Assembly: GCA_044225555.1 (NCBI GenBank)
Contig: JBGAIM010000018.1
Coordinates: forward strand, 73,382-137,381
DNA length: 64,000 bases
Reading direction: 5' to 3'
DNA from: Limisphaerales bacterium
GTDB lineage: Bacteria; Verrucomicrobiota; Verrucomicrobiia; Limisphaerales; JADLHS01
The position numbers were made by a program, and so were the translations under genes. Shown in pieces: positions 35,584 to 41,659 of the stretch. The notes beneath the pieces are model-generated. The model was not told the origin of the DNA. It did not search any database and worked only from the letters and a program-made list of their open reading frames with translations. How positions within the stretch are numbered: position 1 is the stretch's first letter; each line of letters begins with the position of its first letter.

Positions 35584-35733
35584 GATGGGCCGCTCGTCGT
35601 GGATTATCGCTCAACCAATCGAAACCGAATGCGGATGTAGTTCAACGGCGATAGAACACCCGGACGCGAGTCCGGGAGATGCAGATTCGAGACCTGCCTT
35701 CCGGTTTCTAAGCCACCGCACTTCTTGCCCATC
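35584..35733 (+). ncRNA. Y RNA-like module 1 (YrlA-like: Ro-binding stem plus internal tRNA-like domain)
   Basis: Closing helix 5' GATGGG-C-CG (35584-92) / 3' CTTG-CCCATC (35724-33) with bulged C. Followed by GGATTATC. Internal D arm GTTC-AACGGCGATA-GAAC. Anticodon-position stem CCCGGAC-GCGA-GTCCGGG (GNRA cap). T arm GCAGA-TTCGAGA-CCTGC. Helix GAAACCG/CGGTTTC. Confidence 0.6.
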
Positions 35734-35817
35734 TGAATCTGCTGTCGCAGAAAGATTTTTTGCGACGCAAACAACATCCGATCGTTGCGACGCGAAATGT
35801 CGTGTTCGCAACAGGAC

Positions 35818-35893
35818 CGCCTCGTAGTTCAACTGCGTTAGAACACCCGAAGAAATTCGGGAGACATGGGTTCGATTCCCATCGAGTGCGCCA
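35818..35893 (+). ncRNA. Anticodon-less tRNA-sized RNA (tRNA mimic with GAAA-capped anticodon stem and encoded CCA)
   Basis: 76 nt. Acceptor CGCCTCG/CGAG(T)GCG. D arm GTTC-AACTGCGTTA-GAAC. Stem CCCGAA-GAAA-TTCGGG in place of the anticodon arm. Canonical T arm ATGGG-TTCGATT-CCCAT. 3' CCA. Its D arm is paralogous to that of module 1. Confidence 0.55.
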
Positions 35894-35898
35894 CTTTC

Positions 35899-36005
35899 GA
35901 CGGGCCGTTGAGTTTGGATTATCGGTGAAGTCCGAAAGGATGAGCGGGTTCAAATCCCGCCCCAGCCGCCAGATGGCTGGGTTTCCAACTCGCTCCTTGT
36001 CCGTC
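35899..36005 (+). ncRNA. Y RNA-like module 2
   Basis: 5' GACGGG-C-CG / 3' CTTG-TCCGTC with bulged C. Upper stem GAGTTTGGA/TCCAACTC. GGATTATC. Internal TCC-GAAA-GGA hairpin. T arm GCGGG-TTCAAAT-CCCGC. Closed 7-bp hairpin CCCAGCC-GCCAGAT-GGCTGGG. No D arm. Confidence 0.5.
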
Positions 36006-36013
36006 ATCCATTT

Positions 36014-36136
36014 GGAATGGGCCGCTGCACTTTGGTTATCGAACTGGTAGCTCAATCGCGTCAGAGCGTCTCGCGCCAGCGGGAAGATTGGGTTCCAATC
36101 CCACCAGAAACATCGAAGTCGTTCCTTGCCCATTCC
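36014..36136 (+). ncRNA. Y RNA-like module 3 (YrlA-like)
   Basis: 5' GGAATGGG-C-CG / 3' CTTG-CCCATTCC (8 bp, bulged C, C-G and G.T). GGTTATC. tRNA-like core CTGG-TA-GCTC-AATCGCGTCA-GAGC-G-TCTCGC-GCCA-GCGGGA-AGAT-TGGG-TTCCAAT-CCCA-CCAG. Confidence 0.65.
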
Positions 36137-36152
36137 ACATTGCAGGCTTTTC

Positions 36153-36285
36153 ACGACGGGTCGCAGGATTGGGTTATCGCTCATAACGACGCGGTCGCCG
36201 GTTCGAGTCCGGCCTCCGGAACCAAATGCCGGAGTAGCTCAGTGGTAGAGCACGTAAAATTCCCAGTTCATCTCTTATCCGTCGT
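36153..36285 (+). ncRNA. Y RNA-like module 4 (divergent Ro site; circularly permuted tRNA-like core)
   Basis: 5' ACGACGG-G-T-CG / 3' CTTAT-CCGTCGT (7 bp plus G.T, bulged T instead of C). GGGTTATC. Order is T arm GCCGG-TTCGAGT-CCGGC, closed acceptor hairpin CTCCGG-AACCAAATG-CCGGAG, then TA plus D arm GCTC-AGTGGTA-GAGC. Confidence 0.5.
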
Positions 36286-36291
36286 TTTCTT

Positions 36292-36404
36292 TGATGGGCC
36301 GAAGACATCGGGTTATCTGTCATTGGTTCGAATCCAATCCGGGGCATAAGACGCCTCGGTAGCTAAGTGGTATAGCAAATTCCTGCGTCGTCCCTTGCCC
36401 ATCA
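36292..36404 (+). ncRNA. Y RNA-like module 5 (circularly permuted tRNA-like core)
   Basis: 5' TGATGGG-C-CGAAG / 3' CTTG-CCCATCA with bulged C. GGGTTATCTG. Order is T arm TTGG-TTCGAAT-CCAA, closed hairpin CCGGGGC-ATAAGAC-GCCTCGG, then TA plus D arm GCTA-AGTGGTA-TAGC. Confidence 0.65.
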
Positions 36405-36464
36405 GCAATTTCATCGCCGCCCGTGCAGCGATGCTCAACCGCAACCCACAACCACGGAGGCCGT

Positions 36465-36647
36465 ATGGCAAACCAGATCCATGAAACAGAAGAATCAAAC
36501 TTCGAAATCACCAGCAAACGTCGCAAGGGATTCCCGTCCGAGACGCAGGTGAAGCGCGGCGTGCACGTCGTGCACGGACACAAAGAGCTGTTTGAAAAGC
36601 TCGGGCGCAACGACCTCTGCCCGTGCGGTTCAGGACGCAGCTTTTAA
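36465..36647 (+). CDS. Small SEC-C-motif protein; motif truncated by a stop at a TTTT run
   Basis: GGAGG lies 7 nt upstream of ATG 36465. Sequence is [60 protein letters not shown]. The +1 frame continues FKKCCL, which would complete the CPCGSG..KKCC zinc motif. Confidence 0.5.
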
Positions 36648-36724
36648 GAAGTGCTGTCTCCGTTCCGGCAGATATGACGGTGTGAGGCGGAACTACTTTT
36701 TTCCGCGAGTAGTTAGTTTATTTC

Positions 36725-36795
36725 CTGCGGGCCGAACGGTGTGGGTTATCTCGTCTGTTAAACGAACCATCCCACGCTTGCCAACTTGTCCGCAG
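36725..36795 (+). ncRNA. Y RNA-like module 6 (simple stem-loop Y RNA without tRNA-like domain), 58 nt upstream of rsr
   Basis: 5' CTGCGG-G-C-CGA (36725-35) / 3' CTTG-T-CCGCAG (36785-95) with bulged C. 3'-side internal loop TGCCAA. Upper stem GGTGTGGG/CCCACGCT. 25-nt loop starting TTATCTC. Confidence 0.65.
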
Positions 36796-36852
36796 TTCCA
36801 ACAAAACAACCGCGTCGAGGGTTGGCGATGCGTTTCTGAAAGAGAGGGTATT

Positions 36853-40962: not shown

Positions 40963-40969
40963 ATTCATC

Positions 40970-41045
40970 GCCCTCAAAGCATTGGTAGCGATGCCATCGC
41001 TCGGTAAGCGAATGCAACCCGGTGCAACTCCGGGTGAGGGCTCCA
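40970..41045 (+). tRNA. tRNA-like gene, anticodon GGT (Thr-type)
   Basis: Acceptor GCCCTCA/TGAGGGC. D arm GCAT-TGGTAGCG-ATGC. AC stem TCGC/GCGA, loop TCGGTAA (C33). T arm CCCGG-TGCAACT-CCGGG. T73 plus CCA. 76 nt. Confidence 0.55.
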
Positions 41046-41056
41046 TTCTCAAACAT

Positions 41057-41125
41057 CGCAGTCGAGCCAGTGCTCAGGTGGGTTTCATAAGCCCGCCGGG
41101 TCCGGGGCGGCACCGGAGACTGCGA
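41057..41125 (+). tRNA. tRNA-like gene, anticodon CAT (Met-type 2), mini D-arm, no encoded CCA
   Basis: Acceptor CGCAGTC/GACTGCG. D hairpin GAGC-CAGT-GCTC. AC stem TGGGT/GCCCG, loop TTCATAA. T arm TCCGG-GGCGGCA-CCGGA. A73 is followed by GGC. Confidence 0.5.
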
Positions 41126-41148
41126 GGCATAGGCATGCCGGCCACCTC

Positions 41149-41220
41149 GCCTCCATGCAGCAGCCTGCGGATTTCTTTTGTAAAGAATTCCTGCCGGAGC
41201 ATCACCGGCTGGAGGCTCCA
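41149..41220 (+). tRNA. tRNA-like gene, anticodon TGT (Thr-type), mini D-arm
   Basis: Acceptor GCCTCCA/TGGAGGC. D hairpin CAG-CAGC-CTG. AC stem TTTCT/AGAAT (extendable to 8 pairs), loop TTTGTAA. T arm GCCGG-AGCATCA-CCGGC. T73 plus CCA. 72 nt. Confidence 0.55.
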
Positions 41221-41237
41221 TTTTCATTTCCGTTTTC

Positions 41238-41321
41238 GGGCGAGTGGTTCAGAGGGAATAGCAGACCCCGCAGATCGAGAGTCTGCGAGCCTTGGAGGTG
41301 CAAGTCCTCTCTCGCCCACCA
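41238..41321 (+). tRNA. tRNA-like gene, anticodon GAG (Leu-type subfamily)
   Basis: Acceptor GGGCGAG/CTCGCCC. D arm GGG-AATAGCAGA-CCC. AC stem GCAGA/TCTGC, loop TCGAGAG (C33). Variable GAGCCTT. T arm GGAGG-TGCAAGT-CCTCT. A73 plus CCA. 84 nt. Confidence 0.55.
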
Positions 41322-41325
41322 TTTC

Positions 41326-41399
41326 GGCCTGCAAGCATTAAAGTGATGCAACGGACTTTTAATCCGTAGAACAGGGAGCGTTACCCTGGCGGGCCACCA
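41326..41399 (+). tRNA. tRNA-like gene, anticodon TTT (Lys-type)
   Basis: Acceptor GGCCTGC/GCGGGCC. D arm GCAT-TAAAGTG-ATGC. AC stem ACGGA/TCCGT, loop CTTTTAA. T arm CAGGG-AGCGTTA-CCCTG. A73 plus CCA. 74 nt. Confidence 0.65.
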
Positions 41400-41405
41400 A
41401 TTCAT

Positions 41406-41479
41406 TGCCTTGTGGTGTAACAGCAGCATGCCGGGTTTTGACCCCGACGGTCTTGGTGCGAATCCAAGCGAGGCAGCCA
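41406..41479 (+). tRNA. tRNA-like gene, anticodon TTG (Gln-type)
   Basis: Acceptor TGCCTTG/CGAGGCA (T1-A72). D arm GTG-TAACAGCAG-CAT. AC stem CGGG/CCCG, loop TTTTGAC. T arm CTTGG-TGCGAAT-CCAAG. G73 plus CCA. 74 nt. Confidence 0.6.
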
Positions 41480-41502
41480 ATTTTGGCAGGTCGAGCTTCG
41501 AC

Positions 41503-41576
41503 CGCCCGGTGGTGAAATAGAATCACGTCTGGCCTACACCCAGAAATCGAGGGGGCAGAACCTTCCCGGGCGACCA
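41503..41576 (+). tRNA. tRNA-like gene, anticodon TAC (Val-type)
   Basis: Acceptor CGCCCGG/CCGGGCG. D arm GTG-AAATAGAAT-CAC. AC stem TCTGG/CCAGA, loop CCTACAC (C33). T arm GAGGG-GGCAGAA-CCTTC. A73 plus CCA. 74 nt. Confidence 0.55.
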
Positions 41577-41584
41577 CTTTCAAT

Positions 41585-41659
41585 TGCCTCGTTGCATAAT
41601 CAGGAGTGCACCGGTCTCTGACACCGGAGGACCTGGAGCAAAACCAGGCGAGGCAGCCA
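41585..41659 (+). tRNA. tRNA-like gene, anticodon CTG (Gln-type)
   Basis: Acceptor TGCCTCG/CGAGGCA (T1-A72). D arm GCA-TAATCAGGAG-TGC. AC stem CCGGT/ACCGG, loop CTCTGAC. T arm CCTGG-AGCAAAA-CCAGG. G73 plus CCA. 75 nt. Confidence 0.6.

Follow-up and report, generated by a model that had tools for sequence, protein, structure and literature searches.

Two tRNA elbow types side by side in a Ro60-linked tRNA island of a Limisphaerales bacterium

Why should a bacterium keep, within a single locus, tRNAs and tRNA-like RNAs whose elbows are built in two different ways? The question is raised by a 64,000-nucleotide piece of the forward strand of contig JBGAIM010000018.1 (positions 73,382-137,381, assembly GCA_044225555.1) from a Limisphaerales bacterium (JADLHS01), hereafter called the window, in which an island of tRNA genes and Y-RNA-like modules surrounds rsr, the gene for a Ro60 orthologue. 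Nearly all known tRNAs use a T-loop of the UUCRA type together with G18, and few features of the molecule are as conserved as G18, U55 and the TΨC loop. In this island they are replaced by a matched alternative, A18 and G55, across an apparently chargeable second tRNA set, and the standard form is retained by tRNA mimics whose genes lie some hundreds of bases from it. The island is a natural experiment on the purpose of positions 18 and 55, and gives a handle on two questions, namely which ligand is bound by the tRNA-like heads of bacterial Y RNAs and why spare tRNA arrays stand beside RNA-repair genes. The source genome (Verrucomicrobiota, 6.5 Mb, 96.6% complete) comes from a soil or sludge habitat, and its closest relatives are metagenome-assembled genomes (MAGs) of Limisphaerales/Verrucomicrobiia.

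The T-loop split inside the island

The original prediction for this locus was that its RNA genes fall into two classes with unmixed loop types, the seven non-decoding elements having T54-T55-C56 and the 31 anticodon-bearing genes having G55. In the window, this division is upheld. All seven non-decoding elements carry a TTC T-loop at the places proposed for it: TTCGAGA in Y module 1 (35686-35692), TTCAAAT in module 2 (35949-35955), TTCCAAT in module 3 (36093-36099), TTCGAGT in module 4 (36202-36208), TTCGAAT in module 5 (36327-36333), TTCGATT in the free-standing mimic at 35819 (35871-35877) and TTCAACT in the element at 40162 (40214-40220). These loops had been called canonical, which is correct at positions 54-56 and not beyond them (in module 1 an A.C mismatch closes the T-stem, and position 57 of module 3 is C). 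The GG-containing D-loop AGTGGTA, ascribed to modules 4 and 5, is found at 36241-36247 and 36366-36372 in the Rfam YrlA alignment. For the decoding class the number required correction, there being 32 cloverleaf genes for all 20 amino acids, and G55 applies to every one of them (32/32), in T-loops of the forms TGCRANN, AGCRTNA, TGGRANT, CGCAACT or GGCRGNA. For the split, Fisher's exact test gives a p of about 6.5e-8 (32 vs 7, worked out by hand) and of 5.4e-8 when computed with a decoder count of 33.

The tabulation was redone on an alignment from a covariance model, which was built from 18 array tRNAs and searched against the three arrays of this genome. G occupies the second T-loop position in 45/46 elements, and the sole exception is the 35819 mimic. 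The two-class proposal would have been undermined by G55 in the housekeeping tRNAs of the same host, and these show none: all 45 dispersed tRNAs called by ARAGORN (45/45) have TTCRANN T-loops and GG D-loops, and a 46th, a tRNA-Cys truncated by the end of contig C10, is likewise canonical. The G55 tRNAs of this genome are restricted to the island and two smaller arrays, on contigs C15 and C26.

A dependence of the cell on the island for tRNA-Cys, considered when ARAGORN called no canonical one, is ruled out by the copy on contig C10 (GG D-loop, TTCGATT), with which the housekeeping set is complete. Two further tRNAs of this genome, both with TTC T-loops, were missed by ARAGORN: one of 102 nucleotides (nt), whose anticodon region holds an insert of about 30 nt (C8:146477-146578), and one of 92 nt with a 6-bp D-stem, possibly a tRNA-Sec (C4:26762-26853).

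The island runs from 32319 to 42365 on the + strand and comprises, in order, 15 tRNA genes, a His-like tRNA, the Y modules with the mimic, rsr, tRNA-Cys, the 40162 element, another 15 tRNA genes and a gene for an HNH endonuclease. Two genes on the opposite strand interrupt it, an unrelated one after the first 15 tRNAs and a DUF1579 gene between tRNA-Cys and the 40162 element. A small SEC-C open reading frame (ORF) lies between the Y modules and rsr, and a 217-codon ORF between rsr and tRNA-Cys. The features are as follows.

32319..34161, + strand: tRNA array A, 15 G55/A18 genes (Gly, Trp, Ala, Met, Tyr, Asp, Pro, Arg-TCT, Asn, Ser-CGA, Ile-GAT, Phe, Glu, Arg-GCG, Thr-CGT), from ARAGORN, Rfam and our own cloverleaf scans
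35503..35576, + strand: tRNA-His(GTG)-like gene with T-loop TGCAAAT and a flawed acceptor stem (Rfam tRNA 34.4 bits; the R1 covariance model covers positions 7-65 only)
35584..35734, + strand: Y module 1, a Ro60-type stem around an unpermuted tRNA-like cloverleaf (Rfam tRNA 33.4 bits at 35631-35705; motif scan)
35819..35893, + strand: free-standing tRNA mimic (Rfam tRNA 39.4 bits), kept in 26 loci
35899..36006, + strand: Y module 2, a Ro60-type stem with a GAAA mini-hairpin, a T-arm and an acceptor-like hairpin, without D-arm
36014..36135, + strand: Y module 3, a Ro60-type stem around an unpermuted tRNA-like core (Rfam tRNA 21.3 bits at 36044-36107)
36153..36287, + strand: Y module 4, a YrlA-type permuted mimic with T-arm, closed acceptor hairpin and D-arm (Rfam YrlA 38.7 bits, 36154-36287)
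36292..36404, + strand: Y module 5, a YrlA-type permuted mimic (Rfam YrlA 34.2 bits, 36296-36397)
36725..36795, + strand: Y module 6, a Ro60-type stem-loop without tRNA-like part (5'-strand motif plus closing strand; sbRNA model 28.4 bits)
36853..38553, + strand: rsr, the Ro60 orthologue with TROVE and vWA domains (Pfam PF05731, PF25045)
39341..39412, + strand: tRNA-Cys(GCA) with T-loop TGCGACT and discriminator U73
40162..40236, + strand: non-decoding tRNA-like RNA, kept in 34 loci, with stems supported by the alignment fold
40240..41659, + strand: tRNA array B, 15 G55/A18 genes (Lys-CTT, Arg-TCG, four Leu, Ser-GCT, a long-arm 'TAT' gene, Thr-GGT, Met, Thr-TGT, Lys-TTT, Gln-TTG, Val-TAC, Gln-CTG)
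41781..42365, + strand: HNH endonuclease gene at the 3' end of the array (Pfam HNH_4)

The canonical T-loop of the Y modules is already known YrlA biology, being the consensus of that family. Modules 4 and 5 align over their full length to the Rfam YrlA model (RF02553), with their UUCGA T-loops and GG D-loops on the model consensus, and stay below its gathering score of 69 bits; the model of nematode Y-like sbRNAs additionally matches the stem of module 4. These two modules have the permuted YrlA domain (UUCGA T-arm, closed acceptor hairpin and GG D-arm), from which modules 1, 2, 3 and 6 differ. Further characters of the YrlA family are Psi55 introduced by TruB, dihydrouridine introduced by DusA and binding to Ro60. 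A distance to rsr of up to about 4 kb has been used as the location criterion for YrlA RNAs (PMC4201824), and the modules, at 35584-36795, all lie within it. Among the remaining elements, module 1 has GG in its D-loop and C33 in the loop at the anticodon position, and the D-loop of module 3 is without GG. The 35819 mimic, a paralogue of the module 1 core, has an anticodon arm capped by GAAA and a 3' end GCCA; in the relatives of the mimic that ARAGORN calls, TTCGATT is constant and the loop at the anticodon position is variable. The 40162 element had been described as degenerate, a description that does not survive its 83-94% identity in 34 related loci. It consists of an acceptor-like stem of about 11 bp and a 9-10 nt loop with conserved CTTCACAG, is without CCA, and keeps TTC in 33/35 aligned copies, the one in the window included.

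The elbow of the array tRNAs

The same prediction spoke of decoding tRNAs that lose U55, which is misleading, since G55 is one half of a compensated swap from G18/U55 to A18/G55, in which positions 19 and 56 covary and the T-loop is otherwise intact. The D-loop of the array tRNAs has AG, never GG. When 94 tRNAs of seven related loci are aligned by model, the first of two D-loop columns is A in 82/94 and the second is G in 83/94, and the T-loop reads N54, G55 (93/94), C56 (87/94) and R57. In the tRNAs without C56, the D-loop changes along with position 56 inside one isoacceptor family, the preceding A remaining constant: in Leu-CAG, C56 goes together with TAG and G56 with TAC; in Pro-TGG, C56 is matched by AG, and A56 or G56 by CT; in Arg-TCG, A56 is matched by TAT and G56 by YAY. 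The arrangement A18-N19:N56 fits 490/553 distinct tRNAs, compared with 393 +/- 6 after shuffling of the T-loops, a shuffle that ignores kinship among tRNAs; yet the 19:56 switches recur in several isoacceptor families. An earlier candidate, pairing of C20 with G55, was dropped, given that the base after AG, though C or U in the majority of array members, is A or G in the remainder, and that A18 gives the better fit. In terms of the Rfam tRNA family (RF00005), the near-universal G18/U55 is replaced in essentially all array tRNAs, and G19:C56 is kept or covaries.

The generic T-loop motif occurs in rRNA and RNase P RNA too. The T-loops of riboswitches (flavin mononucleotide (FMN), cobalamin) combine a YGNRA sequence with an intercalating adenosine, and the tRNA type has U at position 2 (bioRxiv 10.1101/2022.12.26.521914). 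Among 590 G55 tRNAs of the related loci, TGC, TGA, TGG and CGC loops make up 510, in line with the YGNRA pattern (U or C at position 1, G at 2, a purine at 4 and A at 5); R57 is present in 588/590 and A58 in 515/590, and at 54:58 there is a U:A pair in 474 and its reverse, A:U, in 64. One Ro60-linked array of mixed type, from a Myxococcales MAG, holds 15 TTC tRNAs and three TGC tRNAs, and the latter are exactly those with an AG D-loop. Being invariant, A18 is the likely intercalating adenosine, and would stack between T-loop positions 4 and 5 and contact position 2. If the T-loop is of this UGNRA-plus-adenosine type, the L-shape should hold; as read from the alignments, the elbow is rebuilt rather than lost, and its outer 19:56 stacking face is kept.

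Several lines of evidence make the array genes apparently working, chargeable tRNAs. In the 94 relatives, 93.5% of the stem cells are paired vs 58% in shuffles, and 729 cells are changed on both sides vs 229. CCA is encoded in 575/590 G55 tRNAs, and the identity elements match the housekeeping set (Ala G3:U70 13/14, Cys U73 45/45, Asn G73 31/31, Leu A73 77/77). Most array members have normal 7-nt anticodon loops, and the set includes several isoacceptors besides covering all 20 amino acids. That the G55 genes would be decaying pseudogenes, or an artefact of assembly or annotation, is extremely improbable. Their Rfam tRNA scores are lower (30-54 bits vs 53-77 for housekeeping genes), with 18 RF00005 matches above 29 bits in the window, 14 of these among the 32 array genes, and more array genes passing in a smaller search; the T-loop of one gene is interrupted, and the acceptor stem of the His gene is flawed. 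Decay and artefact are nevertheless contradicted by compensatory covariation in every stem, by conservation over about 60 genomes and by the presence of the same island sequence in independent sequencing runs from 8 studies.

A further alternative accepts charging and places the G55 tRNAs outside ribosomal translation, where they would donate amino acids, act as a sponge for toxin RNases, or provide ligands or substrates to Ro60, Y RNAs and RtcB. There is precedent for it in the non-proteogenic tRNA-Gly of staphylococci, three Gly-only tRNAs for cell-wall synthesis which have TGC or TGT for TTC, no Psi55 and few modifications (PMC7826273; the same source names position 19 as a dihydrouridine site, not as G19), and a sponge role has been suggested for the tRNAs of L-arrays (PMC8421152), the systems compared below. 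Some island members have C33, which would suit such a role. We consider this alternative quite improbable, since a 20-amino-acid set with isoacceptors, mostly normal anticodon loops, identity elements and CCA is the pattern of decoders, and the scanned island proteins included no aminoacyl-transferase.

The arrays contain a number of additional structures. The four Leu tRNAs (40402-40485, 40491-40575, 40574-40657 and 41238-41321) are without the usual long variable hairpin and have instead a 6-7 nt insertion after the acceptor stem (GGTT/GGCT), which can pair with the short variable region (AGCC), an unusual design of the extra arm. The tRNA-Pro(TGG) gene (33014-33151) carries a structured 63-nt insert (33070-33132) inside its T-loop. 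Contigs of two RNA-library runs join 33069 to 33133, giving the loop TGAAAAT that is intact in relatives, and could represent either an insert-free strain variant or spliced RNA. Some tRNA spacers (32394-32554, 33240-33343, 33420-33517 and 33993-34085) form long AT-rich imperfect hairpins of 7-nt units, one of which encloses tRNA-Trp; contigs of other samples skip two of these hairpins exactly (33239 to 33344 and 33992 to 34086), so that their presence differs between strains. GC-rich hairpins, each followed by a shared CTTTCAATTTC motif, stand directly before tRNA-Gly (32270-32318) and tRNA-Cys (39298-39338), and a similar GC-rich hairpin follows rsr (38555-38600); these may be terminators, processing sites or promoter-proximal elements. 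A short CCA-ending element at 40707-40753, with a 6-of-7 acceptor-like stem and a small hairpin with TTCGA, is preceded by a long hairpin (40664-40702), and the two are kept in only two of the fetched loci.

Conservation among relatives and the possible purpose of two elbows

A Ro60 protein search fetched 80 loci, of which the Verrucomicrobiota ones allow the two classes to be followed outside the window. The covariance model gives 809 tRNA-like matches in 50 Verrucomicrobiota loci, all on the rsr strand. In about 60 Verrucomicrobiota Ro60 loci, ARAGORN calls the 590 G55 tRNAs mentioned above vs 31 with TTC, most of the latter being flanking housekeeping genes, the conserved mimic or Y-module artefacts, with a handful of in-array TTC decoders. 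For the Y modules, a motif scan of the related loci finds 259 Y-type stems, and the T-arm hairpins inside them are TTC in 185 cases and TGC in 10; the permuted YrlA-type modules combine TTC with a GG D-loop in 81/87. The proposal of two classes under different constraints is supported by this contrast between array tRNAs with G55 and YrlA-type modules with TTC and GG in the same related loci. Interchangeable types would be expected to mix, and the 590 G55 tRNAs set against 81/87 modules with TTC and GG therefore point to types that are not interchangeable.

The reading that we favour has a structural and a functional part, of which the structural one is much firmer. Structurally, two elbow designs coexist in the island, each, on this reading, under its own purifying selection. 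The 32 spare tRNAs are normal cloverleaves that retain identity elements and CCA around a generic T-loop corner (U/A/C54, G55, N56, R57, A58, with A18), from which the residues acted on by TruB (Psi55) and by G18-specific enzymes are gone; the host genome has truB. The Y modules, above all the permuted ones of YrlA type, keep the housekeeping type G18 G19 / U54 U55 C56. Functionally, two types kept apart over a long evolutionary span suggest that something distinguishes them, and a stacking face common to both types suggests that whatever does so should act by reading or modifying U55 or G18. Candidate agents would be TruB, a G18 methylase or a T-loop-directed nuclease, and pure elbow-shape sensors seem less likely; a contact-dependent-inhibition toxin of Burkholderia is reported to cleave between positions 54 and 55. 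The earlier suggestion that one class is visible to elbow-recognising factors and the other hidden is too broad, since the 19:56 stacking face is kept in both. We lean, with some reserve, towards a division in which the mimics have to resemble housekeeping tRNAs for the factor that they bind or decoy, and selection keeps the spare pool different from housekeeping tRNAs exactly at 18 and 55. By this the pool would become independent of, or invisible to, a factor reading those positions, such as a modification enzyme or a T-loop-directed nuclease, and would still be charged and used once the repair island is switched on.

A number of observations weigh against this reading. The split leaks among relatives: the module-2 type has TTC in 11 relatives and TGC in 7, and a few D-arm-bearing modules carry TGC as well. 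For the module-2 type, the missing D-arm means that position 55 has no partner. Arrays beside divergent Ro60 genes (68-70% identity; loci L055, L057 and L061) are mixed, with some TTC decoders, and the Ro60-linked arrays of Chloroflexia are wholly canonical, so that G55 is not needed for the basic function of the island. By this distribution, we take G55/A18 to be a derived state of the Verrucomicrobiota arrays and no general requirement of Ro60-linked arrays. Modules 1 and 3 and the mimic combine TTC with non-standard D-loops, and are therefore canonical at positions 54-56 only. No factor reading position 18 or 55 was identified. Regarding expression, three metatranscriptome runs, all of one sample, show an equal, flat depth over island and flanks, in which DNA carry-over is possible. 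A fourth RNA run gives small contigs over rsr, HNH, the ORF at 38639-39292 and the Y modules, and almost none on the flanks; their depth is too low for a firm sign of expression.

Some of these facts are also what would be expected if history and structural coupling alone were at work, the two types being equivalent, A18/G55 having been fixed in the Verrucomicrobiota lineage by drift or by copying between neighbours, and the Y modules having inherited the YrlA consensus. The canonical Chloroflexia arrays and the intermediate, mixed ones fit such a course, as does the drift of position 55 between U and G in the D-arm-less module 2, where the constraint would come mainly from the partner base 18; moreover, both elbow types are known to fold as T-loops. 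We nevertheless hold this alternative to be rather unlikely. It requires two matched substitutions in each of 32 very different genes, and these genes differ too much outside the loops (mean column identity 56%) for gene conversion to yield the uniformity. Neutral exchange, in addition, predicts something other than a near-fixed G55 beside YrlA-type modules that are near-fixed oppositely in the same loci, and all housekeeping tRNAs found are of the type opposite to the array.

The selected division that we favour could be taken further, to a complete and chargeable shadow tRNA set whose A18/G55 corner would give it immunity to, or independence from, a factor acting on the standard corner, be it a T-loop-directed tRNA nuclease or the machinery that modifies U55 and G18. 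The Y mimics would keep the standard corner so that, on behalf of Ro60 and RtcB, they could bind, sense or decoy this factor. Such an extended scheme is unlikely as a whole; if true, it would amount to a two-type marking of self versus spare tRNAs within one cell. Independently of the reading, a natural tRNA scaffold with an altered elbow might interest builders of orthogonal translation systems.

Neighbouring genes and comparison with known systems

Rsr is the sole TROVE protein of the genome, with an NCBIfam match of 505 bits, under the 900-bit cut-off. Just upstream of its gene, the small ORF at 36467-36646 has a SEC-C-like CPCGSG motif and keeps its position in 26 related loci. RtcB proteins of two subfamilies are encoded within or directly after the arrays in about 30 loci, and in this genome RtcB adjoins both other G55 arrays. 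The one on contig C15 (4994-13495, locus L001) includes a paralogous copy (8.4-13.5 kb) of window positions 39.3-41.7 kb with its own HNH gene, 90% identical, followed by RtcB; the one on contig C26 (101067-103289, locus L002) is a G55 mini-array directly upstream of the second RtcB type. Parts that are held on C15 and C26 here sit with rsr in one island in most relatives. Nothing specific came from scanning the island proteins with PADLOC and NCBIfam, and RtcR and RtcA were not seen in the window, where no exhaustive search for them was made.

The HNH gene always adjoins the array in 38 fetched loci, those of Chloroflexia included (31-34% identity). The structure model of the protein has a predicted local distance difference test score (pLDDT) of 97, and its HNH core alone matches solved structures, namely DNA nicking enzymes, HNH domains of Cas9 and McrA. 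A role of this protein as the elbow reader was rejected in view of these DNA-type matches and of its homologues in phage-like contigs and in canonical Chloroflexia arrays, from which it follows that HNH is not G55-specific. Judging from the model, it looks like the homing-type nuclease described for L-arrays. The viral contigs with HNH homologues (five loci) carry few tRNAs, among which is one Ser tRNA of the AG/TGC type.

The island as a whole would be an L-array joined to an RNA-repair cassette of rsr, Y RNAs and RtcB. L-arrays, such as the trn operon of Anabaena, are long, horizontally spread sets of tRNA genes that supplement the housekeeping ones, with rtcB and a gene for an HNH homing endonuclease in the vicinity, and in Anabaena they are induced by translational stress (PMC8421152). 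Silence during normal growth is a further character of the class. The present island resembles them in being dense, in one orientation (32 + strand genes in 9.3 kb) and additional to a complete housekeeping set, as well as in the HNH gene beside the array (38 loci), the nearby RtcB (about 30 loci) and flanking genes that are not common between loci. It differs from them in that every array member of the window is A18/G55 and in that the array is fused to rsr and Y RNAs.

The cassette itself has its counterparts. As with YrlA RNAs (PMC4201824), the modules lie at most 1.3 kb upstream of rsr, have the Ro60-type stem and, in modules 4 and 5, a permuted tRNA-like domain. Unlike YrlA RNAs, they form a tandem of six inside a tRNA array and score below the gathering threshold, and they show four different head designs, with two heads unpermuted and cloverleaf-like, one without D-arm and one module without a tRNA part.

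The rsr-yrlBA-rtcBA RNA-repair operon of Salmonella combines Ro60, Y RNAs and the RtcB ligase, and is not known to include a tRNA set. Ro60, Y RNAs and RtcB likewise stand together in one island in the relatives; unlike that operon, the window adds a tRNA set, and the RtcB genes of this genome stand beside its other two G55 arrays.

With respect to the elbow, the array tRNAs share a G55 T-loop with the staphylococcal tRNA-Gly and differ from it by their full 20-amino-acid set and A18 G19 D-loop. They are similar to riboswitch T-loops in their UGNRA or CGNRA sequence with A18, and unlike them this arrangement is placed at the elbow of otherwise ordinary tRNAs. No published description of Ro60-linked G55 arrays was found in the literature searched, the coverage of which was incomplete. 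The component parts are thus those of an L-array and of the rsr/YrlA/RtcB group, and what is new here is the contrast, within one locus, between A18/G55 array tRNAs and YrlA-type mimics, which is confirmed in the window and conserved among its relatives.

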